64,000 bases of DNA, from positions 5,106 to 69,105 of the forward strand of contig JACPWO010000001.1 in the NCBI GenBank assembly GCA_016197005.1, written 5' to 3'. This stretch comes from Candidatus Anderseniibacteriota bacterium (lineage in GTDB: Bacteria > Patescibacteriota > Andersenbacteria > UBA10190). Made by a program: the position numbers and the translations under genes. Below the pieces are notes generated by a model. That model worked only from the letters and a program-made list of their open reading frames with translations, was not told where the DNA came from and searched no databases. The stretch's first letter is position 1. The number at the start of each line of letters is the position of its first letter. Shown piece by piece: positions 1 to 27,621 of the stretch.

Positions 1-681
1 GCTTGGATAAATGAGCAGCCATTTGATGAGCGTCTCCATATTGCCTCCTGGTATCCTTCCGTAATTTCACCTTTCTTTGAGGGACGCACAATGAGTTTGT
101 CATCACGAGATGACCATAGGGTGGGGTATGTGGTGACGTACCGAAATATGCTGGGGCGAGCCGGTGATACGATTGCGAGTGACGTCCTCGATGAGTTTAG
201 GAATCAGGTGCCCGCTCATACCGTTTATATTCAGGGTATGCCGTACGTTTGGGTGTATACCGTTCTCGGCCCCTATTATTTCCGGCAAAATGTAGGCGAG
301 TTGGTAACTGGTGTTGAAGTAGCTCAAACGGTTCCCATTTCCTTTACTAATTGGAAACAGATTGATTTCGGTCTGGCAACATTTGGTCGGCAGAATACCG
401 CTCCTCTTACGCTCCATATTAGGGAAGAGAAAAATGGACCAGACATCCGTACAGTTACAATTTCAACGGAGAATATTCCAGATCAAGGCTGGCAACCTTT
501 TGAATTTGCCGAAATTCCTAACTCCGCTGGTAAAACATATTATGTCGCGTTGACGAGCGAAATCGGACGACCAGGGAATGCGGTAACAGTTCGCTATTCG
601 AGTGAAGACTTTATGGCTGGTGTGGCTGTGTTTGGCGGCCGCGAGCGCGAAGGAGACTTAGCGTACCGACTCCAACCGTAA
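1..681 (+). CDS. C-terminal part of a GT-C-family membrane glycosyltransferase paralog (5' end lies outside the window)
   Basis: Frame 1 is open from nt 1 with no stop before the listed Met at 91. The translation (…NEQPFDERLHIASWY…VVTYRNMLGRAGD…HTVYIQGMPYVWVYTV) matches the conserved C-terminal domain of the paralogs at 6678..8624, 17968..19461 and 40049..41581. Confidence 0.6.
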   Translation, partial: AWINEQPFDERLHIASWYPSVISPFFEGRTMSLSSRDDHRVGYVVTYRNMLGRAGDTIASDVLDEFRNQVPAHTVYIQGMPYVWVYTVLGPYYFRQNVGELVTGVEVAQTVPISFTNWKQIDFGLATFGRQNTAPLTLHIREEKNGPDIRTVTISTENIPDQGWQPFEFAEIPNSAGKTYYVALTSEIGRPGNAVTVRYSSEDFMAGVAVFGGREREGDLAYRLQP

Positions 682-2488
682 GAAGAGAAATACTTACCCC
701 AAGAAGAAAGCCGGGCGAACGATACTGAAAGATGAGACGATGAGTGCCACCTACTTCTACTATCCAACCAACGCGGTTACTAATATTTTGCGCGGGTTGT
801 CCATTTACTTGCCACCCACTGGCGTAATTCGTATTGAGAATTACTGGTGTATCGGGTGGAGTTTCAACTTTCAATACAACTCGGTTTGGTGACCATTCTT
901 CAATAGTGTATGTTCCGCGTTCGTGCGTTTGTTCATTCTCTATATAGGCTGTGCCGTTGCCAATTTCGTCAGTTACCACTCGGACCGCTGGGGAAGGAGT
1001 AAGTACCGAGCAGTAATTCATACTGCCATATCCTTGGAGAATATCGGTGTACGCTCGAGAGTAGTCAACCTCATTATGACGTGTTTTGTAGGCAAAAGGT
1101 GAGTGTTGTAGTGGTTCCTTGGCGGGTGGTAAGGATTCCAGTGACCGCGGAAGAACAAATGCCTGCTCAGATAAGGGGTAGGACATAGTAAAGAGATCGA
1201 GAGCGATAAGAGCGAGGATTACGTAACTTATACCGCGCGTAGCAGCTTTCTTTTTGTTTTTTATTAAACTCTCCATACCAAATCCGGACAACAAAGAGAT
1301 TGGAATAACAGCGAATAGAACAACACGAGAAATATTCGATCGGGGGAACCACGAAGCTTGATCGAAGAAAGGTTTCAGGGTAGGCCCCGTCGAAGATAGG
1401 AGAATAGCCAGTATGGTACTCATACCAAGTCCAACGACAACGCGCCGCCGCCAATTAAAAATCACTCCGATACACGCCAAAACGGCGGCTACGGGCCCTA
1501 TATATGCCCCATATTCATGCCAACCACTCCCTTGATTTGGAATAACGTTCTCGACTCCATGTAGGTATCGTCCCAAGAAAATTTTGTGGAGTGATCCCAA
1601 CGTAGACGTAGAGCCGGCATACATTTGATCCTGAAACTGAGATAGCCATAGCAACACAGGGATAAGTTTTACCGCTGCCAGTCCTAACGCCCACAAACCA
1701 CTGTGAATATTAACCACCCAAGCATCTTTCTTTCGAGAAGTGAAAAATGGAAGGATAAGAAAAGCGAGAGCAGTGTACATCAGTAGGTAGATGCCGCCTT
1801 GGAAGAAAGTAAAGGCTAAGAAAATACCAGTAATAATATTCCACTTCGTAGATTTTTCGCGGTACGCAGCTAGCCAAGCCCAAAAGATCCACGGAATAAA
1901 CATGGCTGCAAATACATTGGGATGTCCTTCAACAATTTCCAGTAAGGTTACAGAACCAAATGTTGCTACCATACTTGCAACAAGTGAAGAGTACACAGAC
2001 AGGCCCAGACGCTTTCCTAAAAGGAGCATACCAACTCCGCCGACAGCGGTTGCTAGCCAAATAGCGAGTGGAAAGCCGTTTTCAATACCAAAGGCGAGCT
2101 CCACTAAGAAGGTAGGAGTGAAGAAACGAAATTCTGGATCGGCTAGGGCAGCAGTTCCTCCACAGATATATGGATTCCAGTGAGGAAGTTGGTGGTAGGT
2201 AAGAATTGTCTCGCGGTAAGAATGATGGAGAGAAAAATAATAATCCCAATCAGAGATTCCAAGCTGCCCGGTTGAAAACCAAAACCCGAGGGTGGCGAGC
2301 GGGGTAATAGCAACAATAATAAGAGCAGCTAACTGCCAACGCAGACGAGGAAAGAAACGGATAAGCAATATGCCGAGTAGAAATATGCCAGCAACAACCA
2401 CTCCTTGGTGCACGCCAAAGAGGGTATCCGGTGTTATCCTGAGCCACTCAAGGACGAACGTAGATACGGGATTCATAGAGGACGTCAT
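611..2488 (-). CDS. large polytopic membrane protein, family unassigned; N-terminal region is a paralog of 42271..44283
   Basis: 625 aa ORF with more than 10 hydrophobic helices and a roughly 150 aa hydrophilic C-terminal domain. It shares a Trp/Pro-rich N-terminal region with the 42271 protein. No catalytic motif recognised. Confidence 0.55.
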   Translation of the reverse strand: MTSSMNPVSTFVLEWLRITPDTLFGVHQGVVVAGIFLLGILLIRFFPRLRWQLAALIIVAITPLATLGFWFSTGQLGISDWDYYFSLHHSYRETILTYHQLPHWNPYICGGTAALADPEFRFFTPTFLVELAFGIENGFPLAIWLATAVGGVGMLLLGKRLGLSVYSSLVASMVATFGSVTLLEIVEGHPNVFAAMFIPWIFWAWLAAYREKSTKWNIITGIFLAFTFFQGGIYLLMYTALAFLILPFFTSRKKDAWVVNIHSGLWALGLAAVKLIPVLLWLSQFQDQMYAGSTSTLGSLHKIFLGRYLHGVENVIPNQGSGWHEYGAYIGPVAAVLACIGVIFNWRRRVVVGLGMSTILAILLSSTGPTLKPFFDQASWFPRSNISRVVLFAVIPISLLSGFGMESLIKNKKKAATRGISYVILALIALDLFTMSYPLSEQAFVLPRSLESLPPAKEPLQHSPFAYKTRHNEVDYSRAYTDILQGYGSMNYCSVLTPSPAVRVVTDEIGNGTAYIENEQTHERGTYTIEEWSPNRVVLKVETPPDTPVILNTNYASGWQVNGQPAQNISNRVGWIVEVGGTHRLIFQYRSPGFLLGVSISLLTVGVGTLSLLRARGRQTQPHQP

Positions 2489-4712
2489 CTTTTCCTTGAG
2501 AACGATATTTCGCTACTTCCTTCCATGGCTGAGGCATAGAAGTAATATACTCGCTTGAGCTCACATCAATAATAGTATGTATGTCATTGGTCAAGGGCTG
2601 TCCCTCTGCCAAGATCGTCACCTGCGATATAGGAAGATAAAAGGCAGCCGGTAAATTAAGTTCTTCAATAGCATAGCGCGGTTCAAAAGACCGAGCTGTC
2701 CGGGCCGCCCGGTATAAAACAGAATCTAGAGCTGCCGTGAGATTATGGGCATCAATATATTGATCGACTTTATTGAAAATAAGCAGACTACCAATGACAA
2801 AGGGTATGAGAGCGACGACCGGGAAAAAACGAGCGGCCGTAAAACGAACACTGCGAGGCATAAGCGCTGCTGCGATCATCAAGCATATTAAGGGATATGA
2901 CTGTTGGTAGTGCTTCGCAAACGGATGGAACCATATGGCGATAAGTATCTGTGAGGCAAGAACGATCGTCACTAAAATGCCACGCCAGCCGGCGCTTGCG
3001 AGAAAAGGCAGTGGTGCTGCAATTGTGATGCCAGTAATAAGAATGGGAATAAGTTTATTCATTTTTAGCGGATCACTGATTGTCAGCCAGATTGCCCATC
3101 CAATTACAGCAACCGCAATTACGCCAGCAACTATTTGTACTGATTGAGGAAATGACTCTTTTCGCTTCATCCAATAAATCCACCAGGCTAGCACTCCAAA
3201 AAGAGCTAGAGAAACGTACCCGCTGTCATACGGCAAAATGAGTTCTTCTTGTGTCCACGATCGCTTCCACATCGAAGAAATAATTGACCATGTTGAAATG
3301 GAAGCGTCAGAAAAGGCTTGGAATGAGTCAACGATTTGTAGTCGCTCTCCCTCAAAATAGGGTGTGTATACAGGGTTACCATAACGAACTGCATTGTTCA
3401 CAAAAAATGGAAGCACCAGGAAAAAAGCTGGTAAAAACATCCGCAGCAACACAAAAGAAGTTTTTTTAAGTGTGGAATGCTTGGCGCGTATCCCAATAAT
3501 TTCTTGACTGATCGTAGCGGCTAACAAAATAGCAGCTAGCAAAAAGCCTTCCTGTCTTGTCATAGCGGCATATCCGATCGTTATTCCAAAAACAATTTGC
3601 TGCCAGTGATGCCGACGATTGAAAAATAGAACCAGACTTAAAAGAAGGAGACAAGCATATACGGTATACGGCTCAGAACGTAGCGATGTTTCGAAGAAAT
3701 CTCGCTGGAATGCAAGTAAAGCCGCTGCGGTAAAAGCGGCCGGCCATGGGAGTAAAAGACTTCGGGCGAGAAGGTAGACGAGGATAATTGAGAAGGCAGC
3801 AGCGACACTGGAAATACTACGCATGTACGTGTGAGCATCGATCGTGGGATTTATTACTGCTGGAATGAGAAGAATTGGATATCCCGGTAGTCGTTTATCG
3901 AATTCAAACGGATTTTTGAATTTAGTTAGACGAGCAGCAATAGAAAGATAGTTGTAGGGATCTCCTCCGGACACGCCTCCCAAATTCTCCTCGATATCAA
4001 GCCGAAGATTTAACGTAAGTGCCGCTAAACAAATAACTATTCCCAATCCCACTGCTTTCTGCTTTTGTGCTGACAGATGCCGCCAACCAAATCTTCCAAC
4101 GAGGAGAGTAAAAATAATAAGGAGAGCTAACAGCGACCCACTTACTATAAGTTCTTCTTGGTACTTTTCTGCCAAAGTAGCAATTGATTGCCAGAGTGGT
4201 ACTTCCTCTTTAAGACTAACTGCGAACGTTCCTGCCTGTGGTCGCCCCTTCTCGTAGCGAATTAATGATGAAGGGGTGTAATTAGGATCATACCGCCAGC
4301 CAATGGCAGATGCTTGGGTAGCGTCAGGAACGGATACGTCAATACGAAGCTTTCCTGCTTCTGCTGCAATAGGTGGATCTAGGAGAATGGTAGCAAAGCG
4401 ATCGTCGCGAATTTCTGAAGAGGGAATAATGCCAGTAAAAATAGATTGGTCATCTGACAGACGAACTATTTCAATATGAATTGGAGATGGAGACCCCGTA
4501 TTACGAATGTCACTCATGATGAGCCCTAATCCCAATAGTGGTTTTTCAAAAGAAATTTCCTGCGACAAGGTACGATCGCCGAACAGAAGCCGGTGAGTGT
4601 TATATGAGTCGACGCCCTCGCTTATAATTGTTTGCCGTGAGGCTGGTAAGAAAGCTCCGATAATAGCAACGACAACGAGTAGAGTTATACTTAACACGAC
4701 ACGGGTGTTCAT
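2448..4712 (-). CDS. GT-C-fold membrane glycosyltransferase with N-terminal anchored extracytoplasmic domain
   Basis: 754 aa. It has an N-terminal signal-anchor helix, a roughly 200 aa soluble domain, then a multi-TM PMT_2/ArnT-like region (…AAMTRQEGFLLAAILLAA…). The architecture is shared with 12806, 15557 and 37755. Confidence 0.6.
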   Translation of the reverse strand: MNTRVVLSITLLVVVAIIGAFLPASRQTIISEGVDSYNTHRLLFGDRTLSQEISFEKPLLGLGLIMSDIRNTGSPSPIHIEIVRLSDDQSIFTGIIPSSEIRDDRFATILLDPPIAAEAGKLRIDVSVPDATQASAIGWRYDPNYTPSSLIRYEKGRPQAGTFAVSLKEEVPLWQSIATLAEKYQEELIVSGSLLALLIIFTLLVGRFGWRHLSAQKQKAVGLGIVICLAALTLNLRLDIEENLGGVSGGDPYNYLSIAARLTKFKNPFEFDKRLPGYPILLIPAVINPTIDAHTYMRSISSVAAAFSIILVYLLARSLLLPWPAAFTAAALLAFQRDFFETSLRSEPYTVYACLLLLSLVLFFNRRHHWQQIVFGITIGYAAMTRQEGFLLAAILLAATISQEIIGIRAKHSTLKKTSFVLLRMFLPAFFLVLPFFVNNAVRYGNPVYTPYFEGERLQIVDSFQAFSDASISTWSIISSMWKRSWTQEELILPYDSGYVSLALFGVLAWWIYWMKRKESFPQSVQIVAGVIAVAVIGWAIWLTISDPLKMNKLIPILITGITIAAPLPFLASAGWRGILVTIVLASQILIAIWFHPFAKHYQQSYPLICLMIAAALMPRSVRFTAARFFPVVALIPFVIGSLLIFNKVDQYIDAHNLTAALDSVLYRAARTARSFEPRYAIEELNLPAAFYLPISQVTILAEGQPLTNDIHTIIDVSSSEYITSMPQPWKEVAKYRSQGKDDVLYESRIYVRP

Positions 4713-4733: not shown

Positions 4734-6164
4734 ATGAGGACTGATAAAGCAACGATTTTTATACTTTTTACCCTCTTTTGCTTAGCTAATGTAGCATTTC
4801 TTAACCGTGTCCCAGGGTTACTTGGAGATGAAGCTTCGGAAGGTGAAAATGTGTATGAACTTCTTACGAATGATTCGATTACGGTAGTAGGCGAACGATC
4901 ATATATCGGCCCAGCGATTGATTACGTACGTGTGCCTTTTGCCGCTGTTTTTGGATATACAACTCTGGCACTGCGAATACCAATGTTCATATTCTCGGTC
5001 GCCACTTTTTGGTTAGCCTGGAGTGTCCTTAAAAAACAATTTGGGGAAACAACTGCACTGTATGCACTCACATTACTTACGTTTTCTCCTGTCTATGTAC
5101 TCTATCAACGTCTGGGTTGGGCAATTACACTTTTCCCGTTCTTTACATTTCTTATCATTTGGTTGGCACAGCAATCATGGCGAACAAAGTGGTTATGGGT
5201 TGGGGTAGCAGCCGGGTTAGGATTGGCTAATCATATTTTATTTTTACCGATACTGGTTGGATTTATTAGCGGATATATTACTTTTGCTGTGGTGCGGCGC
5301 CTGTTGTTATCCACTAACCGCTCAACTAGTTCCCAGTCATTGTGGCATACGGTTTTACTGGGCGTTATTACCGCATGCGTTGGCTTTTGGGCTGGATTTG
5401 GCATGCAATTTGCTGTGTTGCAATTGCATACGGACGATCAAGGTAGCATCAAGGCTACCACCCAGCTTTTCTCGGAACGGGTGAGCGATTTTATTAGTGC
5501 CGCTCCGCTGTACATCTCCGGCTCATCGTATGTTGCTCAATATATGGGACAGGAATTCACACCAAGTATCACATTACTAGTTGTAATCGTCTTATTAGTT
5601 CTTGTCGGTGTAGCAATTATTTTGAATTGGAGAAATCCGTACTTGTGGGCGTATGTTTTGGGGCTGGTGCTGCATCTCTCTGCCATGCTGTACATGATCG
5701 ATCGATTTAATTTAAGGTACTTCACAACATTTGCCCTAGGCATTTGGCTTCTGGCCGGTATGGGTTTGGGGAGCATATTACGCCGGGTACCGAAAATGCA
5801 GATCGGCGTACCACCTTTAGCGGTCCTGTTGCTTCTTTGGCTCGCAGGAGGTGTTCTTATCCCATTTCTTCACACCGGAGGAGCAGTCGCTGAGTTTTCG
5901 CTTGGTAATCGCACGAATGATGCTGCGGCGTTTGTAGACACCCGACCGCTCATTAGTTGTTTACGAGGGAAAGGTCCACTTTACTCGGAAAATATTCACA
6001 TCTGGAACCGATTACAATATCTAAGTCACTACTATGATGATTTAGTAGTAGTGCCTGAAGATCGAAAGAGAGAGGCAACAGTACAGGTGGCGTATATGGA
6101 TCCGAAAATATCGTATCGAGGAGGAATTTGTCCTGATCTGCAGCATTTCCAGGTGGGAAATTGA
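4734..6164 (+). CDS. GT-C-fold (PMT_2/ArnT-like) membrane glycosyltransferase
   Basis: 476 aa, multi-pass membrane protein with an acidic first loop (LLGDEASEGEN) and a PMT_2-like TM arrangement. The start is only 21 bp from the divergent upstream gene. Confidence 0.55.
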   Translation: MRTDKATIFILFTLFCLANVAFLNRVPGLLGDEASEGENVYELLTNDSITVVGERSYIGPAIDYVRVPFAAVFGYTTLALRIPMFIFSVATFWLAWSVLKKQFGETTALYALTLLTFSPVYVLYQRLGWAITLFPFFTFLIIWLAQQSWRTKWLWVGVAAGLGLANHILFLPILVGFISGYITFAVVRRLLLSTNRSTSSQSLWHTVLLGVITACVGFWAGFGMQFAVLQLHTDDQGSIKATTQLFSERVSDFISAAPLYISGSSYVAQYMGQEFTPSITLLVVIVLLVLVGVAIILNWRNPYLWAYVLGLVLHLSAMLYMIDRFNLRYFTTFALGIWLLAGMGLGSILRRVPKMQIGVPPLAVLLLLWLAGGVLIPFLHTGGAVAEFSLGNRTNDAAAFVDTRPLISCLRGKGPLYSENIHIWNRLQYLSHYYDDLVVVPEDRKREATVQVAYMDPKISYRGGICPDLQHFQVGN

Positions 6165-6618
6165 CAAAAAAGAATAAAGGATTATTGTGTTTGTAGCCGC
6201 GGCGAGTTCAGGCCCGCATTTGCCGCAGGTAAAGGAGTGGTTCTAGCTCGTGCTGGAATCACTCCCGAATCCAAGCCGTTCTTTTCAGGGCTAGAACGGA
6301 TAAGATAATATGGTGTATCGCTGTGGAGGGTACTAGGAATTTGATGTAATTGTTGCATCAAACCATCTACAGCAACCTCGATGGAGAAAAGGCTATGAAG
6401 AGCCTCAGCTGTTTTAAGAAAAATTGAAAACACCTCGGCGCCGGCCATCTTCCTCCACCTCGCCAAGGAGACACCATGAACCGTATTCGCGGTCCCCCGT
6501 GAGTACCCGCTGTCGCGTTGATCCGTTACCACAAGGTGTCGAGTGGACTTTGTCCCTCAGGTGATTCAGCACGCTAGGTCGTTGCTGTCACAATGAAAAT
6601 ACTCGTCACTTGTGCGCC

Positions 6619-6653
6619 GCCCCGCTGCTACATGCACGGGGCTTTCTTTTTTT
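6619..6653 (+). terminator. rho-independent terminator (GCCCCG, 12 nt loop, CGGGGC, then TTTCTTTTTTT)
   Basis: Read directly: a 6 bp GC stem at 6619-6624 / 6637-6642 followed by a U-tract. It lies at the 3' end of the roughly 450 nt non-coding stretch 6165..6677. Confidence 0.5.
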
Positions 6654-6677
6654 ATACAAAGCAGTAGTGTAGTGGGC

Positions 6678-8624
6678 ATGTTCAAGGACTGGAGGACCTA
6701 TAAGATAGATATCCTTTTTGTTTTACTTATTTTTTTCGTTGCCCTTATTCCACGAATCGTCGATCTAGGTATATTTTTAACTGCTGACGAAAAAAACTGG
6801 ATTGGCCGATCCTATGAGTTTATTAAAGCGTTTAAAGATGTTCGGCTGAACGATATGTTGCAGACTACCCATCCTGGGGTACCGGCGTTGTGGCTTATGG
6901 GAATAGCCGTTACGGCAAAAATGTTTTTATCCCATATTCCGTTTTCGTCTGACACACTTCCTCAATTTATCTGGGCCACTCAGTTTCCCATCGCTTTCGT
7001 CAATGCACTCGCGGTGCCTACTATATACATTTTCCTTCGCAAACTAACTTCTGGTTACAAGATCCCTATTATTGCATCTCTCTTTATTGCTTTGGACCCA
7101 TTTATTATCGGCTATTCGCGGGTCGCTCACGTCGATGCACTTGTCATGAGCTTCCTATCTTTAGCAGCCCTCGCGACCATTATCTATGTTAGTAAGAACT
7201 TTGATCGACGCTGGCTGCTTGTTTCTGCCGTATTGTCCGGTTTGGCAATACTGACCAAGGCCCCAGCGATATATATAATTCCATTTTTCTGGTTAGCGGT
7301 GCTTTGGAAAAATGGCCTAAAACACTTTTCTTGGGATGGTCTCTCCGGGCGAGTACGGGATTTTGTCCTCTGGTCTCTTTTGATTGCAGTCATGATCGCA
7401 GTTATCTGGCCGGTATTTATTACGGTCGTAAACCCAAAGGGAAATGCAAATATATTACGACGTGACCTAAGTGTGGCTATAGCGACACCACATCACATGT
7501 CTGAAAACTATTCAGTGAAGGCTTGGCATTACCCAGCCGCTTTGCTAGTACGAACGAACCCCGTAACACTTGTGTTTGCTCTAGTGGCGGTCCTTTGGGT
7601 TGTGGTTGCAAGCATTCGCCGGCAGTCATCTCCGACCACCTATTGGTTACTCATAGCGTATGTTTTCTTCTTCGTTCTAATGATGACGCTTGGGGCCAAG
7701 AAGGGGGATCGGTATATACTGCCGGTCTTCCCGGCTATTGATGTATTAGCAGCAATTGGTCTCGTGTCCTTGGTAAAATTTACTAAATCCAGCTCTTTTA
7801 CAAAGTTGCTTCCAGCAGCTGCTGTTTTATATCTCGCCTTTACGGTATATACATATCACCCATACGCATTGGCGTATGCGAACCCCTTCTTTCCAGATAA
7901 TTTGAGCCAGGAGTTGGGGTGGGGTGAGGGACTGGAACAAGTAGCAAACTGGTTCAACGAGAACGATCCCAAAGCTCACGTCGCCTCTTGGTATGACCAA
8001 GAGCTTGGTGCATATACGACTGCGCGCGTTGTTTCGATTGGAGCGCACGAGCAACCACATATTAAATACGTCGTGCTATACAAAAACATGTTTGGTAGAG
8101 CGGCTGATCATCCAGCAAATGATTATATTGACGAATATTACAAAAAACGAGAGCCAGTATTTGTCGCGCACGTTCTTGGGAAGGAGTTTGCCTGGGTTTA
8201 TAAGAAGCAGGTGTATGAAACAATAACCGGCGAACTTTTACCGGGACAAAAAGTTAAACAAGTACTTGCTGCTGATACCGAGCCAATCGTTGGTCTTGAT
8301 ATCCAGATGGCTACATACAACGGGCGGGCAACAAGCGGGCAGGTAATAATAACATTAGAAGATTCCACCGAGAATCTGATCCATACCTGGACTATTCCCG
8401 TCTCCGACATTGCAGATGACAGCTGGCGCCGTCTCTTACTGCCTACACGTGCAGAAAAAGGAGAAATGCACGTTAGTATAACTGCCGAAGGGACTACTCG
8501 AGGGAATGCTCCGACTATTCGACGTACAACCGAGGGAATAGTAGCGGTTCGACTTTTATACGGTATACCCAGCAACCCCTACCACTCCGAGCAAACCAAG
8601 TTACTCCCTTCAAAGCTTAAATAG
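6678..8624 (+). CDS. GT-C-fold glycosyltransferase (GT39/83-like DE motif) with conserved C-terminal domain family
   Basis: The ORF-track start at 6612 would read through the terminator hairpin, so the start is moved to ATG 6678 (MFKDWRTY…). It has the loop-1 motif TADEKNW, many TM helices, and a C-terminal GWGEGLEQ / YVVLYKNMFGRAADHP block shared with four paralogs. Confidence 0.6.
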   Translation: MFKDWRTYKIDILFVLLIFFVALIPRIVDLGIFLTADEKNWIGRSYEFIKAFKDVRLNDMLQTTHPGVPALWLMGIAVTAKMFLSHIPFSSDTLPQFIWATQFPIAFVNALAVPTIYIFLRKLTSGYKIPIIASLFIALDPFIIGYSRVAHVDALVMSFLSLAALATIIYVSKNFDRRWLLVSAVLSGLAILTKAPAIYIIPFFWLAVLWKNGLKHFSWDGLSGRVRDFVLWSLLIAVMIAVIWPVFITVVNPKGNANILRRDLSVAIATPHHMSENYSVKAWHYPAALLVRTNPVTLVFALVAVLWVVVASIRRQSSPTTYWLLIAYVFFFVLMMTLGAKKGDRYILPVFPAIDVLAAIGLVSLVKFTKSSSFTKLLPAAAVLYLAFTVYTYHPYALAYANPFFPDNLSQELGWGEGLEQVANWFNENDPKAHVASWYDQELGAYTTARVVSIGAHEQPHIKYVVLYKNMFGRAADHPANDYIDEYYKKREPVFVAHVLGKEFAWVYKKQVYETITGELLPGQKVKQVLAADTEPIVGLDIQMATYNGRATSGQVIITLEDSTENLIHTWTIPVSDIADDSWRRLLLPTRAEKGEMHVSITAEGTTRGNAPTIRRTTEGIVAVRLLYGIPSNPYHSEQTKLLPSKLK

Positions 8625-8674: not shown

Positions 8675-8703
8675 TTGACATATTTTCTAATATCATGTAA
8701 GAT
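8675..8703 (+). promoter_or_regulatory. sigma70-type promoter, TTGACA-17-TAAGAT
   Basis: The -35 box TTGACA is at 8675-8680, followed by a 17 nt spacer and the -10 box TAAGAT at 8698-8703. An AAGGT Shine-Dalgarno sequence sits at 8724-8728, ahead of the ATGs at 8732 and 8741. Confidence 0.5.
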
Positions 8704-8731: not shown

Positions 8732-9973
8732 ATGTTAACTATGACAAATATCTTACAGCTACGCCTGCGCGGTATCCGGTACATCTTACCGGTTGCTTTG
8801 ATCGTCGTGGGTACAGCATTATTCACCTCAAACCTTGAATCAGCTACCGGCGCTGGTAGTAACGGTATTACCGTCATCAACCCTCGCCTTTCCGCTGGTT
8901 ACAGTAACCTGCCTCGCACTCTGCGAGATCAGCCAGTTATTGAGGTATTCGTTAATTCACCAATTCATAACGCTCCAGCTGGAACATACGACAAGAACGC
9001 CGTTCCTTTCAGTTATAGCGTGAACTTCTTAGTCTGTAACAACATCCTCTTCAATGCTCGAGTTTTGTCTCGCTTTGATGCAATGGGTGGACACCACAGC
9101 AACTATGAAGGTACTGCACAGAGTAACTGGATTAAGCTTACTGATGATTCTCATGGCGAGAACCACTGTGGCGGATCTCTGTACTGTGTTGCTAGTCGAA
9201 CTGGTAGCCATACCCTTAACTTCTCAAGCCTGAAAGCTGGAGAAACAAAAGCTACCTTGCAGGTAGTTGGTAAGTGGCTCCGAAAACAACAGCCAAGCGA
9301 TTCCTTTGATCGGAATGATGCTTCCTTCACGGACAACAAAGCTACTGCTGTGAACATTTGGCTTAACTTTGGTGGATCAACTCCAACTCCTACCCCAACA
9401 CCTACGTCTACGCCAACAACTACTCCAACTCCTACCCCAACACCTACACCGACTCCAGCGCCAGGTGAACCGGGAATCCGAGTAACTAAGACTGATAACC
9501 GAGATATCACTCGTCCAGGACATACCTTGACGTATGAAATCAAAGTAGAAAATGTCGGTGAAGTTGATATGGGAGACGTTGAAATCAAAGATACCGTTCC
9601 TTCTTACCTTAAGATCACATCTGTCAGTGACAGTGGTCACATCTCTGGTCAGGTTGTTACCTGGAATGGAATTGATCTTGACACTGATGAATCTAAAACC
9701 TTCTACGTTAATGTAACGGTAAAGGATTCTGCCCCAAACGGCACCAACCTTCTTAACACCGTAGAAGCTTGTTCAGATGATCAGGACGTCTGCGATGAAG
9801 ATGACGATACAACTATTGTGGAAAAACCTCCGGTTGTAAAAGGAGTAACCAAAACAGTTGTTATCAAAGAAGTCCCAGTAACCGCTAAAACCGGTGGTGC
9901 AGCCTCTCTTGCTTTAACCAGCCTTGCTGGTGGAGCCAGTGGCCTCATTTACCTCAAGCGTCGTTACTTCTAA
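8732..9973 (+). CDS. secreted/cell-surface protein: signal peptide, unknown N-domain, Thr/Pro-rich linker, DUF11 repeat domain, sortase-like C-terminal signal
   Basis: The signal-like N-terminus is LRGIRYILPVALIVVGTALF. A 28 aa TP-rich linker is followed by a DUF11-type block (TLTYEIKVENVGEVDMGDVEIKDTVPSY…VTWNGIDL…). The C-terminus has a motif (VPVTAKTG), a hydrophobic helix and a KRRYF tail. The gene has its own promoter and terminator. The alternative start is ATG 8741. Confidence 0.7.
   Translation: MLTMTNILQLRLRGIRYILPVALIVVGTALFTSNLESATGAGSNGITVINPRLSAGYSNLPRTLRDQPVIEVFVNSPIHNAPAGTYDKNAVPFSYSVNFLVCNNILFNARVLSRFDAMGGHHSNYEGTAQSNWIKLTDDSHGENHCGGSLYCVASRTGSHTLNFSSLKAGETKATLQVVGKWLRKQQPSDSFDRNDASFTDNKATAVNIWLNFGGSTPTPTPTPTSTPTTTPTPTPTPTPTPAPGEPGIRVTKTDNRDITRPGHTLTYEIKVENVGEVDMGDVEIKDTVPSYLKITSVSDSGHISGQVVTWNGIDLDTDESKTFYVNVTVKDSAPNGTNLLNTVEACSDDQDVCDEDDDTTIVEKPPVVKGVTKTVVIKEVPVTAKTGGAASLALTSLAGGASGLIYLKRRYF
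9380..9464 (+). repeat. low-complexity ACN-CCN tandem repeat encoding (TP)n, with an internal 42 bp direct repeat
   Basis: The sequence ccaactcctaccccaacacctac occurs at 9384 and again at 9426. It encodes STPTPTPTPTSTPTTTPTPTPTPTPTPAP. Confidence 0.6.
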
Positions 9974-10000: not shown

Positions 10001-10034
10001 CCAACCCCGCTCTAACGCGGGGTTGGTTTTATTA
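10001..10034. terminator. bidirectional rho-independent terminator between convergent genes
   Basis: CCAACCCCGC, TCTAAC loop, GCGGGGTTGG, then TTTTATTAT on the + strand. On the - strand the same hairpin is followed by CTGTTTTGTTTG. The hairpin overlaps the last four codons and the stop of the - strand gene 10012..12816. Confidence 0.6.
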
Positions 10035-12816
10035 TAGGGAGGAAAAAAAGTAAACTTCCTATCAGTACTCCCGATAGGGTTAATATGCGCGCCCACATTA
10101 CTGCGGGTGATTTATATTTAAAGGAAATGATATGAGTACCAGTGGGTATCTCCGCAGTTTTAAAGATGGAATTACCAACAAGTTGCACTGATTCTTTTCC
10201 ATCAATATAGGTATGCCACTGAGGGGTAGTAGAATCCGTAAGTACCACATAGGCAGGTTGATCTGACGTCACCTCAATGTCCACCTGCGTGGGTTCGTAC
10301 CGTTTAATAACCGCGTTAGCGTTAACAGGTTGGGAAGAAGTTAAGATCTTTTCAGGTGGCTTCGGACCAGATAAATACACAACATTCCTTGGATCGAAGT
10401 CGGTGGCACTCATGGCGTGTCGTGTTTCATCAGCGGCAGATTTCCAGATACCAGAGGGAACGACAAACGCATGAGGATAGGCATTAGGATTGCTATATAA
10501 ACGAGCTGTTTTTGTACCAATGGGCACTTCTGCGACCACTTTATATCCGGCTTCTACCATCGTGTCGCTGTTAACTGATGATAAAAGTTGGCCCAAGTGA
10601 GTAATCCCAGCCATGTCCAAGAGTTTACGGCTACGTTCAATGGCGTGGATATTATCACCGTCAAGCGGCTCCTGATCATTCGCAAAAAAGAATTCAATAA
10701 ATTGTCGATACGGACGTATGGAAAGAGCACCAATCCAGCGGGCGCTGGAAGCGCCGGCAATGACATTAGTATGCCGCTCCAGAAGAGCAGCTTCAACGTC
10801 ATATGATGTTATAAGGTCTGGCTCAATGAGAGTTTGGACGGTTTTTTGGGAACGTTCCCACTCAGCTTCGGTTGGGTCAGAAGTGCGAACAAAATAGGCT
10901 TGATGTTCAACGTCAGGTTGTTCAATAAAAGGAACGGTAACATTGGAGTTAAAATCAGCGGATAGTGAAATCCAGGTCGTTGCTTCCGGTGAAATAATAC
11001 CTTCGTCAAAACAAATATGCTGTCGTGCACCCTGACCAACTCGGTGCAAGGATAAAGAAATTACTTGTTGGGGTGGCTGTCTTGGATCCCTGTACGCCCC
11101 TACATTTATCTCCCCTTCCTGACCGGCGAGGGCAGCTTCGAGTGGAAGATAGATGCAGTGAAAATCTTCAGTTGTTGGCGGGATCGGTTGGTAAACAGAG
11201 AATGTCGGCGAAATATGATCAGTATAACGAACAGCGGCAACATCTTCCGGTTTTTTTTGTAGGAGCAGCGGTCGGACATATAACCGGGGTGGCACCAGGT
11301 TTTGATCAGCAGCACGTACTGCTTCTTCAAGCGGAGAGACCGCAAAGGCGGTAGTGGCAGGTGTGGTTGGATTATAATTCCAGGCATAACTGAGCAATGT
11401 AACAACTGTCAGAATTGATAGTCCGTACATTTGCACTCGCCTTCCTCCTTTTCCGTGGACGACAAGTGCAATGACTAGGAAAATAATACTGAACGCAACC
11501 AAAAGAATATGTGGATCATTATGCTCCCATAGATATCGCAACTCGTGTTGTTCCACTCCTTCTTCCCATACCCTCATTAAGAAGGGACTTAAAAGAATAA
11601 GAGGAAAAGCAAGGGCGCTAATACCAAACCAGATTTTTTTTCTCCTACTTCCATGGAGAAATGCCTCGATGCCCGCGGTTGCTAACAGCGCGATGCCAAT
11701 GTCAAAGAAAAATACAAAGCGAGAGGCAATTGCAAACGAAGAGAAAATGAGCTTCTCAACTAAGTAGTGATAAAGTGGTGAGTACTTTCCTAAAGCTAAT
11801 AGAATTGAGAGTGCGACGAGAAGTCCACCCGCTGCATGTTCTGCTCTCCAGCGACGACGTTGGGTGAGCGCAGCGCCAGCTAATGCGAGTGGAATAATTC
11901 CGACGAATGCAGCTAGTTCCTGAAAGCCCTTTGCTCCCCAGTGGGTACTGTGATTTCCAAAGAAGTACGGGAGTATAAGTGTGACGGCGTGAACTGGTGG
12001 GTAGCTAAACTCCACTAACTCTTGTCGGGAGAGCGCCTCAGCTCGTTCGGTCTCGGGAATGAATTCCCAGAGAGGGAGTATGGCGAACGAAGATATACAA
12101 AGAGCTAGTAGTCCGGCTATAACGGTGTGTCCCATAACCTTACCAAAGTGCCGCCAGCTTGTTGCGTACTCAGCAAGGAAGCAGGCTCCAATAATGGCCG
12201 CGGCAATAAATGTGAGAAGAACAACTTGCGGCTGCGCTGACAATACAATTGCGGTTGCAATTGCTGCCAATGTCAGGTTGGAACGGAGAACGGGATGCTC
12301 AACGACACGGAGAGCGGCTAAGACTAGCCATGGCAACAGCATTGTCCCTGTATAAAAGTTAACGTGATTCAAATGCCCAATAGAAAATCCACTGAAGACA
12401 AAGACAATAGCTCCGACTGCGCTTGGGATTTCAGAAAAATGACGACGGCGCAGAAGAGCATAGAATCCGAGTAAACCGATCAAAAAGTAACTGGCAATCG
12501 AGATTTGGAGGAGCGTAAGTGGATGAAAACCGATCAGTCGTAGCAGAACATGAAGCGGGGTAAAGAAACCGAGCTGTCCCCACGCTAGGAGGGGATGTCC
12601 AAACCCAAATTCGTTGCTCCAAAGTGGGAGCTGCCAATTGTGTTGAAATTCCGCGTAGGCTTTTTCCAGTGGATAATAAATAATTTTAAGGTCGTCGAGA
12701 AAGAAGATATTACCAGCAAGAAATATGCGACCAAAAAAAATCGCCCACGTTAAAATAATAAAACTCAGCCCCACCCGATTTTGGTGAATGTACGTGAGTA
12801 ATCGGCTATTGTTCAT
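10012..12816 (-). CDS. YfhO-like GT-C-fold polytopic membrane protein with large C-terminal extracytoplasmic domain
   Basis: 934 aa. It has about 13 N-terminal TM helices with conserved His/Trp-rich loops, followed by a roughly 400 aa soluble C-terminal region and a final TM helix. The YfhO assignment is by architecture only. Confidence 0.5.
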   Translation of the reverse strand: MNNSRLLTYIHQNRVGLSFIILTWAIFFGRIFLAGNIFFLDDLKIIYYPLEKAYAEFQHNWQLPLWSNEFGFGHPLLAWGQLGFFTPLHVLLRLIGFHPLTLLQISIASYFLIGLLGFYALLRRRHFSEIPSAVGAIVFVFSGFSIGHLNHVNFYTGTMLLPWLVLAALRVVEHPVLRSNLTLAAIATAIVLSAQPQVVLLTFIAAAIIGACFLAEYATSWRHFGKVMGHTVIAGLLALCISSFAILPLWEFIPETERAEALSRQELVEFSYPPVHAVTLILPYFFGNHSTHWGAKGFQELAAFVGIIPLALAGAALTQRRRWRAEHAAGGLLVALSILLALGKYSPLYHYLVEKLIFSSFAIASRFVFFFDIGIALLATAGIEAFLHGSRRKKIWFGISALAFPLILLSPFLMRVWEEGVEQHELRYLWEHNDPHILLVAFSIIFLVIALVVHGKGGRRVQMYGLSILTVVTLLSYAWNYNPTTPATTAFAVSPLEEAVRAADQNLVPPRLYVRPLLLQKKPEDVAAVRYTDHISPTFSVYQPIPPTTEDFHCIYLPLEAALAGQEGEINVGAYRDPRQPPQQVISLSLHRVGQGARQHICFDEGIISPEATTWISLSADFNSNVTVPFIEQPDVEHQAYFVRTSDPTEAEWERSQKTVQTLIEPDLITSYDVEAALLERHTNVIAGASSARWIGALSIRPYRQFIEFFFANDQEPLDGDNIHAIERSRKLLDMAGITHLGQLLSSVNSDTMVEAGYKVVAEVPIGTKTARLYSNPNAYPHAFVVPSGIWKSAADETRHAMSATDFDPRNVVYLSGPKPPEKILTSSQPVNANAVIKRYEPTQVDIEVTSDQPAYVVLTDSTTPQWHTYIDGKESVQLVGNSIFKTAEIPTGTHIISFKYKSPAVMWARILTLSGVLIGSLLFFLPIIKPTPR

Positions 12817-15004: not shown

Positions 15005-15015
15005 ATCCTTGATAG

Positions 15016-15534
15016 TCAGTTGCGACATTGCGTCTCCGTACCACCACACACGCGATAGAGTGCTTTATCATCCTCATGAAGAATTCGATAATCAAATTTT
15101 CGTGTTTCGTCTTCATCAAAAGCAATCACATCATTTTGAGGAAGTTCCAAGCTTGCTTCGAAGAAATATCCCTTAGCTTCTCCTTTTCGTATGTCTGTAA
15201 CACAGTAACGATAGTACTGTGTATCTGACTCGCGAATATCGTGTGGGGAAACATCAATATATTGGCCCTTTACGATTGGTGATTGTGGTCCAAAAAACCA
15301 GCTGTCAACCGTGCGAGAATCGGTGCAATGAGGCTTTGATTTCGGGGGGGTGGGGTAATACTCGCGGTCGTTGTGATATACCTCTACTGCTTGTTTCAAA
15401 TTGGTTATGTCTTCTACCCGTAAGTGATCGCGTGCCTGGGTACGGGCGTAGAGAAAAGCTGGTATAAGAATAATTAAGGCAATCCCGGCGGCAATCCCGA
15501 TTGCCAATAGTTCCCATTTCAGGTCATGATTCAT
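15016..15534 (-). CDS. pseudopilin-like (GspG/type IV pilin-like N-terminal helix) small secreted protein, paralog of 36125..36631
   Basis: Start placed at Met80 of the long ORF (MNHDLKWELLAIGIAAGIALIIL), by analogy with the paralog. The ARTQARDHLRVEDITNLKQAVEVYHNDREYYPTP block resembles the GspG 'AR-D-L-AL-Y-DNG-YPT' region. SWFFGxQSP, IPHDVRES, YCxTDIR and YRVCGGT blocks are shared with 36125. The exact start is uncertain. Confidence 0.45.
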   Translation of the reverse strand: MNHDLKWELLAIGIAAGIALIILIPAFLYARTQARDHLRVEDITNLKQAVEVYHNDREYYPTPPKSKPHCTDSRTVDSWFFGPQSPIVKGQYIDVSPHDIRESDTQYYRYCVTDIRKGEAKGYFFEASLELPQNDVIAFDEDETRKFDYRILHEDDKALYRVCGGTETQCRN

Positions 15535-26885: not shown

Positions 26886-27603
26886 CTTTTCGATAAATAA
26901 ATATTCTACGTAATGCGGTATGCCGACGAACACCTTCCCCGACTATTGCTTCTAATTTTTCACCCAATGCTAGTAACCACGGTGGACCTGCCGGTATAAA
27001 AACAGTAGTTTTCTCCTTAAGTTTAGTGCAGGCAGCTCCGGCAAAGGTCGATGTGATAAGACGCCTTTGTACCATTCGATGCGGGCCTTCAGAATGATGT
27101 AATCCTAGGACGGGCGCAAGTAAATGGATCGGTTCCCAGGCAACGGTTGGCGTTGTCAAGACGATAGCTCCTCCAGGTTTTGTAACACGTACTAGTTCTT
27201 GTATATATTTTCGCGGCCAAGGTACGTGTTCTAACGTTTCGTAACTTAACGTTACATCAAAGGTATTGTCAGCAACAGGAAGTGGAAGATTAGTAAATTG
27301 TTGGACAACCGCTGGAACATTCGCTGCCTGTAACCGTTTAGTCGCAACATCCTTAAAAAATTGAGAAACAACCAAACAGGTAAAAGAAAGGTTTTTATCT
27401 TTGTTGCGTTCATAGAAAAATTGCGAACCGATTCCTGTGCGAGCATCAATGTCTAACACATGAGCGCCAGACGGAATAACAAAAAGTGGAGCGCTATCTG
27501 TAAACCGCCGCTCGTAGGACGCCGTTTTGGCATTTATTTCGTCATAACCAACCGTTTTATCCCAATGTTGGGCCACATCTGCCAAACTCCAATTACGCTT
27601 CAT
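26845..27603 (-). CDS. class I SAM-dependent methyltransferase
   Basis: VLDIDARTGIGS…TLEHVPWP…VTKPGGAIVLTTP. Confidence 0.65.
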   Translation of the reverse strand: MKRNWSLADVAQHWDKTVGYDEINAKTASYERRFTDSAPLFVIPSGAHVLDIDARTGIGSQFFYERNKDKNLSFTCLVVSQFFKDVATKRLQAANVPAVVQQFTNLPLPVADNTFDVTLSYETLEHVPWPRKYIQELVRVTKPGGAIVLTTPTVAWEPIHLLAPVLGLHHSEGPHRMVQRRLITSTFAGAACTKLKEKTTVFIPAGPPWLLALGEKLEAIVGEGVRRHTALRRIFIYRKDGQNLAKNPRQYH

Positions 27604-27621
27604 GTGTGTTACTATACGCGC

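Follow-up and report, generated by a model that had tools for sequence, protein, structure and literature searches.

The intergenic region between two glycosyltransferase genes of an Andersenbacteria genome is best read, in silico, as an autonomous transcription unit of the + strand (6161-6653) with a predicted promoter and a predicted terminator. All positions refer to the window, that is, the whole 64-kb stretch of DNA that was analysed. Promoter, terminator, RNA fold and two mini-ORFs were observed in silico together with their conservation: the same architecture recurs upstream of the orthologue of the downstream gene (PMT_2/DUF6212), and most of its features are common to 5-7 Andersenbacteria lineages. 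A translation-sensing regulatory RNA is more likely than a plain non-coding RNA. In its specific form, to which we give slightly less than an even chance, the proposal is that the unit is a cis-acting regulatory RNA that senses ribosome stalling at Pro-Pro-UGA and acts on the downstream gene. Genomes of CPR bacteria (Patescibacteria) are tiny and densely packed, and to our knowledge almost nothing is known of their gene regulation. If the proposal is true, the unit offers a concrete, testable regulatory element in this group; otherwise the region is just another orphan RNA specific to its lineage.

Genomic setting, promoter and terminator

The gap of 513 nt (6165-6677) lies between the stop of the upstream glycosyltransferase gene at 6164 and the ATG of the downstream one at 6678. 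A preceding reading of the letters alone (hereafter the sequence-only reading) had called it the only long intergenic stretch, and this was borne out by an ORF survey of the 64 kb, in which no other gap between ORFs of at least 150 aa exceeded about 160 nt. The elevated GC content described there was likewise confirmed, being 0.51 at 6190-6660 against a window mean of 0.453, with a local peak of 0.54 at 6400-6599 that equals the maximum of the window. Both the orthologue alignment and the NCBI gene call (GCA_016178385.1, JACOTL010000006.1) agree with the ATG at 6678, to which that reading had shifted the start of the downstream gene. The features of the region are as follows.

4734-6164, + strand: upstream gene, coding for a 476-aa GT39/PMT_2 membrane glycosyltransferase
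6161-6188, + strand: predicted sigma-70-type promoter, TTGACA (6161-6166), 16 nt, TATTGT (6183-6188)
6182-6532, − strand: 116-aa antisense ORF, annotated at 88 aa by NCBI, which we do not regard as a gene
6196-6375, + strand: lineage-specific 5' structured domain, by fold prediction
6395-6427, + strand: mini-ORF 1, MKSLSCFKKN-stop, with a putative Shine-Dalgarno (SD) site GGAG at 6383-6386 and an 8-nt spacer
6436-6446, + strand: GC palindrome CGGCGCCGGCC, 8 nt past the stop of mini-ORF 1
6465-6470, + strand: putative SD site AAGGAG, a sequence motif with a 5-nt spacer to the ATG of mini-ORF 2
6476-6502, + strand: mini-ORF 2, ATG AAC CGT ATT CGC GGT CCC CCG TGA, that is, MNRIRGPP-stop
6530-6614, + strand: three-way-junction domain of the predicted fold
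6619-6653, + strand: intrinsic terminator, a bulged GC hairpin (6619-6642) and a U-run (6643-6653)
6654-6677, + strand: conserved junction to the start codon, with a -10-like TAGTGT at 6665-6670
6678-8624, + strand: downstream gene, coding for a 648-aa PMT_2 (GT39-like) protein that matches DUF6212 weakly

The TGA stop codon of the upstream gene falls within the -35 hexamer of the unit, and transcription is predicted to start at about 6195, giving an RNA of about 460 nt. The pattern TTGACA-N16-18-TAnnnT matched three times in the 64 kb, the promoter of the unit included, and two of the three matches are intergenic. Among the loci of relatives (numbered with L), the 5' edge of the unit carries an exact TTGACA and a -10 at the proper distance in L018, L020, L023, L024, L015 and L051; for L028, the promoter sits about 55 nt within the gap and not at its edge.

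At the other end, the stem GCCCCG-C-UGC / GCA-CGGGGC (6619-6642) is followed by UUUCUUUUUUU (6643-6653). This GC hairpin with its T-run, already recognized in the sequence-only reading, proved to be a strong terminator, with a free energy of −17.4 kcal/mol that was reached by none of 200 shuffles, and was missed by a simple terminator scan because of the bulge in its stem. The same bulged terminator with the same 3' arm (GGGGCUUUC.UUUUUU) was detected in L020, L024 and L005, making four lineages with the window. Its end lies 25 nt before the start codon of the glycosyltransferase gene.

A long 3' UTR, in which the transcript of the upstream GT39 gene would run on to the terminator, had also been suggested for the region. 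Both lie on the same strand, and a weak hairpin at 6390-6405 is the sole terminator-like candidate between the upstream stop and 6619. This explanation is nevertheless very unlikely, as TTGACA-16-TATTGT sits on the stop codon of the GT39 gene, the unit stands beside other or opposite-strand neighbours in relatives, and gap-less relatives show that the upstream gene does without the unit.

The TAGTGT element is located 7 nt before the downstream ATG and, to judge from its sequence, probably serves the downstream gene itself as a leaderless promoter. Hexamers of the type TAnnnT are most frequent 6-8 nt ahead of the ATG (13 of 35 genes of the window), and the same -10-like arrangement precedes the ATG in the gap-less relatives L019 and L021. 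The pattern suggests that this organism uses mostly leaderless mRNAs. Dependence of the downstream gene on read-through of the leader terminator is thus probably absent, and read-through could still add to, or interfere with, its transcription.

The minus strand of the gap was examined in the same way, and neither a promoter nor a terminator was predicted on it. Its 116-aa ORF had been described as the only ORF of the region and as devoid of recognisable features. The second part of this description holds and the first does not, since the ORF is the longest and shorter ones exist. No Pfam match was obtained, a search of 5.8 billion proteins returned the ORF itself and no other, and exhaustive HMMER search of 1.84 billion representatives gave three weak multi-stretch matches (E 1e-5 to 7e-4). 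Nor is the ORF conserved in L020 or the other loci; it is an orphan and not the conserved minus-strand protein that had been considered as an argument against an RNA. The NCBI pipeline called an 88-aa gene here, and GGAGG is present 3 nt before its ATG. That a real protein gene of 116 (or 88) aa is encoded, with the RNA features being incidental, is however scarcely credible for an ORF that is an orphan in both protein searches and is missing from the nearest relatives, and that lies on a strand with no predicted signals of its own and much poorer folding than the + strand.

With respect to known RNA families, no match to Rfam was found at the gathering score in the window or in ten related loci. 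At E ≤ 10, Rfam search of 6000-6800 yielded only noise, the gap of L005 was also negative, and ARAGORN detected no tmRNA or tRNA. The Rfam search that the sequence-only reading had called for thus agrees with its failure to recognize RNase P, tmRNA, SRP or 6S RNA. By-eye likenesses to RNase P P4, group II domain V and SRP were dropped because Rfam and ARAGORN were negative.

RNA fold and recurrence of the unit among relatives

Shuffle z-scores for the fold of the gap RNA were −5.9 (+ strand) and −3.4 (− strand), and after correction for GC content the + strand was the most stable of 524 same-size segments in the 64 kb. Units of the relatives are structured too, with z-scores of −2.4 to −7. The 5' domain is predicted to form a hairpin at 6196-6230, a 14-bp hairpin at 6234-6265, and a hairpin at 6320-6373 with a 9-bp apical stem; nhmmer detected no similarity of 6196-6375 to relatives. 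Two internally complementary segments had been noted in this domain, and both of them, GGUUCUAGC (6239-6247) and GCUAGAAC (6291-6298), are indeed present; in the minimum-free-energy fold, however, GGUUCUAGC is part of the 14-bp hairpin and GCUAGAAC is mostly unpaired. When 6232-6302 was folded alone, GCUAGAAC was located in a second hairpin.

The three-way junction is closed by the helix CACAAG/CUUGUG, followed by UG/CA and CGAGU/ACUCG, and carries hairpin A (GGAC-UUU-GUCC, 6545-6555) and hairpin B (6557-6596). The segment 2482-2573 of L020, the nearest relative, took the same three-way-junction topology when folded alone. In a hand alignment of the window with L020, both sides are changed in five of the six closing pairs and in two pairs of hairpin A. 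Single-sequence covariance models of the window (134 and 89 positions) retrieved neither L020 nor the other units, even when run with filters off, and the core is not alignable, so that the covariation evidence rests on these two hand-aligned sequences; L027 and L049, being 99.4% identical, are too close for covariation analysis. The structured RNA named as a candidate in the sequence-only reading is supported by the + strand fold as compared with shuffles, by the conserved promoter and terminator, and by the three-way junction in L020.

Scanning of metagenomes gave no loci with the single downstream protein and 23 loci with an alignment. By nhmmer comparison of the core against 49 loci, only the terminator and junction matched, in L020. 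The unit was always found to precede the PMT_2/DUF6212 orthologue and to be co-oriented with it. Its upstream neighbour varies: in the window it is the GT39 gene, L028 and L051 have a pilin-like gene at this place, and in L015 and L040 the neighbouring gene is encoded on the opposite strand. The locus L051 was examined after the hypothesis had been formed, and promoter, mini-ORF 1, mini-ORF 2 and terminator were all present. L027 and L049 each contain two promoter-RNA-terminator units, the first of which does not adjoin the orthologue. In a neighbour-joining tree the gap-bearing loci fall in one clade, indicating that, in a compact genome, the gap (380-1870 nt) has persisted through a protein divergence of about 50%. 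The absence of Rfam matches and of conservation had been named beforehand as grounds against a functional RNA. One half of this was found, in that there is no Rfam match and no nucleotide conservation of the core; the other half was not, since position and architecture are conserved.

The region could also be a non-functional spacer, the decaying remnant of genes inserted into or lost from the glycosylation cluster, with motifs of no role. Lack of conservation of the core sequence is consistent with such decay, and so is the gap itself, which ranges among relatives from 0 to 3.4 kb, is missing from two members of the clade, and in some relatives carries orphan ORFs, including one of 183 aa in L023. 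We consider a spacer improbable, however, as a long gap has been kept where all other intergenic distances are below 160 nt, and as promoter, terminator, SD-led mini-ORFs and Pro-Pro-stop recur far above background. Both GC content and fold stability exceed those of the surroundings, which is the opposite of decay, and the pilin-like gene of other lineages has left no trace here.

Three specific origins of the region were tried and rejected. For a remnant of the pilin-like gene of 130-150 aa that precedes the orthologue elsewhere, tblastn was negative (E > 0.4); for a phage origin, blastn gave no match; and for a repeat or a DGR-type template/variable repeat pair, nhmmer gave no match elsewhere in the window.

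Mini-ORFs and the proposed mechanism

The term non-coding, as used in the sequence-only reading, is probably wrong in the strict sense, as the RNA contains two SD-led mini-ORFs, the second of which has a peptide end conserved in five lineages. Genes of the window genome are without SD sites. Given mostly leaderless mRNAs, the few SD-led ORFs would stand out as special-purpose elements. The sequence AGGAG is enriched 3.6-fold in the units of relatives, and SD-led ATG ORFs in the units number 10 on the sense strand versus 2 on the antisense strand. The motif [RK]x[RK] occurs within the first seven residues in 5 of the 10 sense SD-led ORFs as compared with 5 of 112 ORFs without SD.

An SD-led first mini-ORF is also present in L005, L040, L027, L020 and L051. 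The GC palindrome motif directly follows the stop of the first mini-ORF in the L005 and L040 units, and lies inside the single long mini-ORF of L024. In the 64 kb, CGGCGCCG was found once, at the GC palindrome.

Mini-ORF 2 consists of 8 codons and includes RGPP, a RAPP-like arrest core, and RIR, a +x+ motif. An ATG ORF with an SD site before it and R[AG]PP-stop at its end arose in none of 20,000 dinucleotide shuffles, although this statistic overstates the significance because the motif was noticed after the fact. The motif R[AG]PP was not found in 23,017 aa of the long ORFs of the window. In the window plus the loci (834 kb, both strands counted), 386 SD-led ORFs of 4-40 codons were detected, and Pro-Pro-stop terminates four of these, in the window, L015, L028 and L051. 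All four precede the orthologous gene and read in the sense direction of the unit. The counterparts of mini-ORF 2 are MKVPQPRPPP-UGA in L051, MRVPRESRHPP-UAG in L015 and MLRPRWDLPP-UAG in L028, to which L020 adds MIKNKDPP-UGA, beginning with a TTG that overlaps the stop codon of mini-ORF 1 in that locus. A Pro-Pro-stop mini-ORF is thus present in five lineages, with 8-11 codons each. Arg is located at −4 in three of the five (RGPP, RPPP, RHPP), and KDPP of L020 and DLPP of L028 are without it. No Pro-Pro-stop ORF was found in L024, L005 or L023, and a Pro-Pro-stop frame in L034 was discounted, having neither SD nor start codon. Mini-ORF 2 and its counterparts lack any hydrophobic segment or signal. 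Recoding of UGA was rejected, as TGA terminates the flanking genes at C-termini that are conserved; stretches free of TAA and TAG, which were also checked, gave no indication either way.

These features lead us to the following model. Transcription from the promoter over the upstream stop codon would produce a folded RNA of about 460 nt ending at the intrinsic terminator. Ribosomes would load at the strong SD site and stall at the Pro-Pro-UGA of mini-ORF 2, and the stall time may alter the folding or protection of the downstream RNA, including the three-way junction and the terminator. The altered RNA could then change transcription through the terminator into the glycosyltransferase gene, or across its promoter. 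Ribosome stalling, the effect on termination and the sign of this effect are the steps that we infer.

In different lineages, the terminator follows mini-ORF 2 at distances of about 35 to about 565 nt. Leader-peptide attenuators have an antiterminator helix that forms according to the position of the ribosome and excludes the terminator; a conserved antiterminator was not found among the lineages compared. In the window and in L024 the 5' arm of the terminator has its best partner at the 5' end of the RNA, and in L020 in the P1 strand. A long-range helix, 6494-6500:6635-6641, belongs to the minimum-free-energy fold of L020, but forcing it in the window costs +17 kcal/mol. Neither a conserved antiterminator nor the long-range helix is supported as a common mechanism.

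As an alternative, the unit might be an independent small gene for a trans-acting structured sRNA, possibly with a dual function through its mini-peptides, that is insulated by the terminator from the glycosyltransferase gene. Its own strong predicted promoter and its terminator agree with this possibility, as does the first unit of L027 and L049, which stands apart from the orthologue. Furthermore, the leaderless -10 of the downstream gene, present also in gap-less relatives, makes read-through unnecessary, so that the unit could act in trans. We still regard a trans-acting sRNA as rather unlikely, because side and orientation of the unit relative to the PMT_2/DUF6212 orthologue stay constant through at least four upstream contexts. 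The features that are conserved are translational (SD, start codon and Pro-Pro-stop) and not a single-stranded seed. The core evolves too fast for a conserved antisense seed, and none is recognized because the core cannot be aligned.

The preferred reading, a cis-acting RNA that senses translation, may extend to an undescribed family of regulatory transcription units in Andersenbacteria (CPR), located before an envelope glycosyltransferase gene, in which an RxPP-stop mini-ORF of 8-11 codons, with an SD site in a genome otherwise leaderless and free of such sites, would arrest ribosomes and thereby control a structured RNA together with its terminator. This extension is doubtful at present. If true, the mini-ORFs would encode the shortest RAPP-type arrest peptides known, working without a secretion signal, and the system would be the first of its kind in cis-regulation to be described in Patescibacteria. 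The RAPP/RGPP peptides, so far long secreted 'monitoring substrates', would then extend to an 8-codon form ending in a stop, and what relieves or tunes the arrest without a pulling force would become the question.

Comparison with known systems

The closest likeness of mini-ORF 2 in peptide sequence is with the RAPP/RGPP arrest peptides. In the arrest core R-[A/G]-P-[P/G], Arg is irreplaceable and position 2 tolerates G, A, S, D or P (PMC12992588, PMC10951233). RGPP and RAPP cause the most robust arrest, refractory to EF-P; RGPP is the strongest RAPP-like variant and the most avoided four-residue sequence in proteomes, and its core blocks peptide-bond formation or release at the ribosome (PMC12992588, PMC10951233). 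Motifs of the RAPP type have been described at the C-terminus of small upstream ORFs, and the RAPP peptides known so far greatly exceed mini-ORF 2 in length and depend on some N-terminal context (PMC12992588, PMC10951233). Elongation arrest of RAPP-like peptides places the third codon of the core in the P site and a Pro codon in the A site. With ApdA, ApdP, ApcA and SecM (RAGP core), mini-ORF 2 shares the C-terminal Arg-Gly-Pro-Pro and the location upstream of, and co-oriented with, another gene, and the position-2 residues observed here (G, P and D) are within the published permissive set. In contrast to RAPP-type secretory or membrane proteins of tens to hundreds of residues, in which an N-terminal localisation signal relieves the arrest, the ORFs of the unit have 8-11 codons and no signal peptide or membrane segment, and therefore cannot be secretion-pulled 'monitoring substrates'. 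Other differences are that the stop codon here directly follows Pro-Pro, with arrest being predicted from the motif, that the ORF lies within a structured RNA of 250-900 nt ending in an intrinsic terminator, and that the host is a CPR bacterium with a GT39-like glycosyltransferase gene as the neighbour.

TnaC of the tnaCAB operon stalls at UGA with peptidyl-Pro-tRNA in the P site and controls downstream transcription termination (PMC8450073). It resembles the unit in being a short leader ORF with Pro before a UGA stop and a terminator downstream. However, TnaC is a peptide of 24 residues in which Trp12 and Asp16 are conserved, and it senses free tryptophan and acts through Rho, whereas the unit is without such a conserved N-terminal part and its terminator is intrinsic.

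The ErmDL and MsrDL leaders are likewise very short ORFs with Arg/Lys-x-Arg/Lys near the N-terminus (PMC8298421, PMC12583479, PMC10314930). The +x+ motifs of this kind are RIR in the window and RAR, RCR, RSR, RPR and KNK in relatives. For msrD, an intrinsic terminator is located between leader ORF and gene (PMC8298421, PMC12583479, PMC10314930), and this is also the arrangement observed here. Macrolide-sensing leaders of the ErmDL type show drug-dependent stalling and stand before a resistance determinant (erm, msr or mef). The unit, in contrast, precedes PMT_2/DUF6212, which is no known resistance gene, and no mutually exclusive antiterminator was found for it.

The mgtL and mgtP leaders of enterobacterial Mg2+ transporter genes are long and structured and contain one or two short ORFs rich in Pro; how fast these are translated sets premature termination. 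They differ from the unit in the use of Rho and of a Mg2+-sensing fold, and share no sequence or structural similarity with it. EF-P, Pro codons and transcription-translation coupling have been linked to each other (PMC5021804). The general order of leader-peptide attenuators, in which short SD-led ORFs are followed by an intrinsic terminator before the gene, is the order found in the unit described here.

The fold and boundaries of the long intergenic region

The sequence of the window was found within contig JACOTL010000006.1 of GCA_016178385.1, a metagenome-assembled genome of Candidatus Andersenbacteria (CPR), and the same region was present at 100% identity in two Logan assemblies. Two co-oriented genes for large membrane proteins of PMT_2/GT39 type flank a gap of 513 nt with a GC content of 0.51 against a window mean of 0.453; no other intergenic distance in the 64 kb exceeds about 160 nt. 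The plus strand at 6190-6660 gave a fold z-score of −5.9 relative to dinucleotide shuffles (−3.4 for the minus strand) and, after regression on GC, ranked first in stability among 524 windows of equal size across the 64 kb. The following features were located.

Features of the gap and its flanks
4734-6164, plus strand: upstream GT39/PMT_2 gene
6161-6188, plus strand: promoter TTGACA-16-TATTGT, with the TGA stop of the upstream gene inside the −35 hexamer
6395-6427, plus strand: mini-ORF 1, MKSLSCFKKN*, GGAG 8 nt before ATG
6476-6502, plus strand: mini-ORF 2, MNRIRGPP-UGA, AAGGAG 5 nt before ATG
6619-6653, plus strand: terminator, hairpin and U-run, −17.4 kcal/mol (0 of 200 shuffles folded as well)
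6678-8624, plus strand: downstream PMT_2/DUF6212 gene

The z-score, the GC-adjusted rank and the real terminator therefore confirm, as more than chance, the sequence-only reading of a lone, GC-elevated gap closed by a strong intrinsic terminator. That reading had offered a structured non-coding RNA or a long 3' UTR, an interpretation that holds in part. The region is a structured RNA and neither a protein gene nor a 3' UTR; it is probably not strictly non-coding.

No known identity was recognized. The Rfam search suggested at that stage matched no family at the gathering score and returned only noise at E ≤ 10, and the gaps of relatives likewise gave no Rfam match. No tRNA or tmRNA was detected by ARAGORN, no second copy was present elsewhere in the window, and no phage match was obtained. 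The antisense ORF (116 aa; 88 aa in the NCBI record), rightly described as featureless, was rejected as a gene: it has no Pfam domain, it matched only itself among 5.8 billion proteins, an exhaustive HMMER search added merely three weak multi-stretch matches, and its strand carries no promoter.

The pattern TTGACA-N16-18-TAnnnT occurs three times in the 64 kb, twice in the scarce intergenic DNA. A second clean match, TTGACA-17-TAAGAT (8675-8703), lies in a 108-nt gap before the gene (8732-9973) for a 413-aa DUF11 protein, which has a long Thr-Pro repeat and is hydrophobic in a segment at its C-terminus. Second in GC-adjusted fold stability is about 28321-28791 on the plus strand (z = −3.1), which sits within overlapping long ORFs, 27460-29196 (plus) and 28089-28661 (minus). 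Very large membrane proteins of PMT_2/GT39-like and YfhO-like type crowd the window (1-64000; for instance 611-4712, 4734-8624 and 10012-15049). Many of the products of the window lack a Pfam match, and it resembles an envelope-glycosylation gene island with many paralogues.

Conservation of the unit among relatives

Syntenic loci (designated by L numbers) were fetched via the upstream protein by use of a genome collection, protein search and contig look-ups, and further loci were fetched from metagenomes by alignment of the downstream protein. In the closest relatives the flanking protein is only 59% identical, and the core, 6165-6615, showed no nhmmer similarity to the fetched loci. In a neighbour-joining tree of the upstream protein, the gap-bearing window, L020, L018, L024, L005 and L023 fell in one clade, together with two gap-less members, L019 and L021. 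The single clade of gap-bearing loci indicates that the gap is old and has been maintained, at 380-1870 nt, and this in a genome otherwise nearly devoid of non-coding DNA. Strong folding was likewise seen in the gaps of relatives (z-scores −2.4 to −7). L018, L020, L023, L024, L015 and L051 have a perfect TTGACA, at proper distance from a −10, at the 5' edge of the gap; in L028 it lies about 55 nt inside the gap. The window, L020, L024 and L005 share a bulged terminator with an identical 3' arm, GGGGCUUUC.UUUUUU, and the 25-35 nt from terminator to start codon are the sole part alignable in these four.

Just 5' of the terminator, 6530-6614 and the corresponding 2482-2573 of L020 each folded independently into the same three-way junction. 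When the two sequences were aligned by hand, anchored on an identical UGUCGAGU, five of six pairs of the closing helix were changed on both sides (CACAAG/CUUGUG in the window, GCAGGG/CCCUGU in L020), as were two pairs of hairpin A (GGAC/GUCC and GAGC/GCUC). Covariance models built from the window alone did not retrieve L020. The covariation sought in relatives thus came down to this hand-aligned pair, for which a shared junction is only suggestive; the core itself offered no similarity.

Several relatives showed peculiarities of their own. Several perfect stems in the L005 unit (7500-8165) are unusually long, at 11-15 bp, such as GGCUCUCCGCCUGU...ACAGGCGGAGAGCU and CUGCAGGAGAA...UUCUCCUGCAG, and the unit folds equally well on either strand (z about −7). 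In L005 the orthologue of the upstream GT39 gene (5845-7434) is split into ORFs 5845-6636 and 6649-7434, perhaps by a frameshift, as a pseudogene or through an error of assembly. The 1.9-kb gap of L023 holds a 183-aa Cys-rich ORF (1775-2326) with a good Shine-Dalgarno site; a search of 5.8 billion proteins gave no homologue, and Pfam gave no match. L027 (810-1680) and L049 (5730-6600), 99.4% identical, carry two consecutive promoter-RNA-terminator units between a pilin-like gene and the gene for a 172-aa Cys-rich secreted protein; the first includes a pair of paralogous mini-ORFs, MRVLYIVCEFFLEMS and MRVLHALKHFVSRV, and a GC-rich hairpin comes after each of them. In many relatives (L029-L033, L036, L037, L007, L016, L049 and L051; e.g. 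L031 3088-3486) the PMT_2/DUF6212 gene is preceded by a gene for a conserved protein of 130-150 aa whose N-terminal part includes a hydrophobic segment. Of two members tested, L032 gave a weak T2SSG (pseudopilin) match and L031 none. This pilin-like gene is absent from the window, and the gap holds no trace of a remnant.

Mini-ORFs with arrest-type ends

No Shine-Dalgarno sequence was found at the thirty-odd gene starts of the window. Instead, TAnnnT hexamers concentrate 6-8 nt upstream of ATG in 13 of 35 genes, with 14 occurrences across these spacings and about one per position elsewhere (35 long ORFs; starts include 4734, 4712, 19550, 23061, 23147, 30391, 31612, 42271 and 6678). Such placement is a hallmark of leaderless mRNAs and suggests that they predominate in this Andersenbacteria genome. 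Both mini-ORFs of the unit, by contrast, are led by Shine-Dalgarno sites. Within the units of relatives, AGGAG is enriched 3.6-fold, and the sense strand has 10 Shine-Dalgarno-led ATG ORFs, the antisense strand 2. Arg/Lys-x-Arg/Lys occurs within the first seven residues in half of these sense-strand ORFs, compared with 5 of 112 that lack Shine-Dalgarno; in ErmDL and similar leader peptides it is the motif of macrolide/ketolide stalling (PMC8298421, PMC12583479).

Mini-ORF 2 ends in RGPP. Ribosome stalling by RAPP-like motifs takes place at the peptidyl-transferase centre, where R-A-P occupies the P site and Pro the A site; small ORFs that precede diverse genes carry such motifs close to their C-terminal end. 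Arg is irreplaceable; position 2 is fully permissive for Gly and nearly so for Pro (in ApdP), and it tolerates Ser and Asp in part. The most robust arrest, refractory to EF-P, comes from RGPP, which bacterial proteomes avoid more than any other four-residue sequence (PMC12992588, PMC10951233). Among 20,000 dinucleotide shuffles of the unit RNA of the window, 2.75% had R[AG]PP in any frame, 0.135% had it with a stop immediately after, 0.03% had an in-frame ATG as well, and none had Shine-Dalgarno in addition. The 23,017 residues of the long ORFs of the window contain no R[AG]PP.

Shine-Dalgarno-led ORFs of 4-40 codons were then scanned over 834 kb, counting the window and every locus on both strands. 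Only 4 of 386 end in Pro-Pro-stop, all on the sense strand of the unit and upstream of the orthologous gene.

Mini-ORFs ending in Pro-Pro-stop
Window: MNRIRGPP
L015: MRVPRESRHPP
L028: MLRPRWDLPP
L051: MKVPQPRPPP

L051, fetched after the hypothesis was formed, presents the whole layout. At the aligned position L020 has MIKNKDPP-UGA, its TTG start overlapping the stop of a first Pro-rich mini-ORF (TTGA). L040 has MPPSEPFP. The end CCC CCG UGA is identical in the window, L020 and L051; the use of other Pro codons and UAG in L015 and L028 argues for selection on the peptide and stop. The first mini-ORF also recurs, starting with MRV in L005, L040, L027 and L015, together with a GC palindrome, CGGCGCCG..., present once in the 64 kb. 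The palindrome comes immediately after the stop in L005 and L040 and 8 nt downstream of it in the window; in L024 it is inside the single long mini-ORF.

Possible modes of action

The unit stays upstream of the PMT_2/DUF6212 orthologue while its upstream neighbour varies among GT39, pilin-like and opposite-strand genes. This constant attachment is the main argument for action in cis, and for this reason we propose a model in which a ribosome would stall on mini-ORF 2 and thereby modulate the fold and fate of the unit RNA and read-through of the terminator.

Three results weaken a specific attenuator model. No conserved antiterminator was found, and mini-ORF 2 and the terminator are separated by anything from about 35 to about 565 nt, depending on the lineage. 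A long-range helix that pairs the end of mini-ORF 2 with the terminator 3' arm is favoured in L020 but costs 17 kcal/mol in the window. In L020 the entire second mini-ORF (2433-2455) is complementary, by 6+5+6 bp, to the 3' arm and U-run (2597-2619) as part of the minimum-free-energy fold; the window has only the 7-bp CCCCGUG:CACGGGG. Furthermore, a −10-like TAGTGT lies 7 nt upstream of the ATG of the downstream gene, and the gap-less relatives are arranged equivalently (TACAAT-6-ATG in L019, TACCCT-6-ATG in L021), so that this gene probably has its own leaderless promoter and would not need read-through. The unit may thus add expression, interfere with the downstream promoter, or act in trans.

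The region is, on purely computational support, a lineage-restricted, architecturally conserved transcription unit with arrest-type mini-ORFs. Known leader peptides include TnaC, which stalls at Pro-UGA (PMC8450073), and MsrDL, which controls an intrinsic terminator (PMC10314930); with its arrest-type mini-ORFs, the unit would represent a novel variation on such leader-peptide and arrest-peptide regulators.
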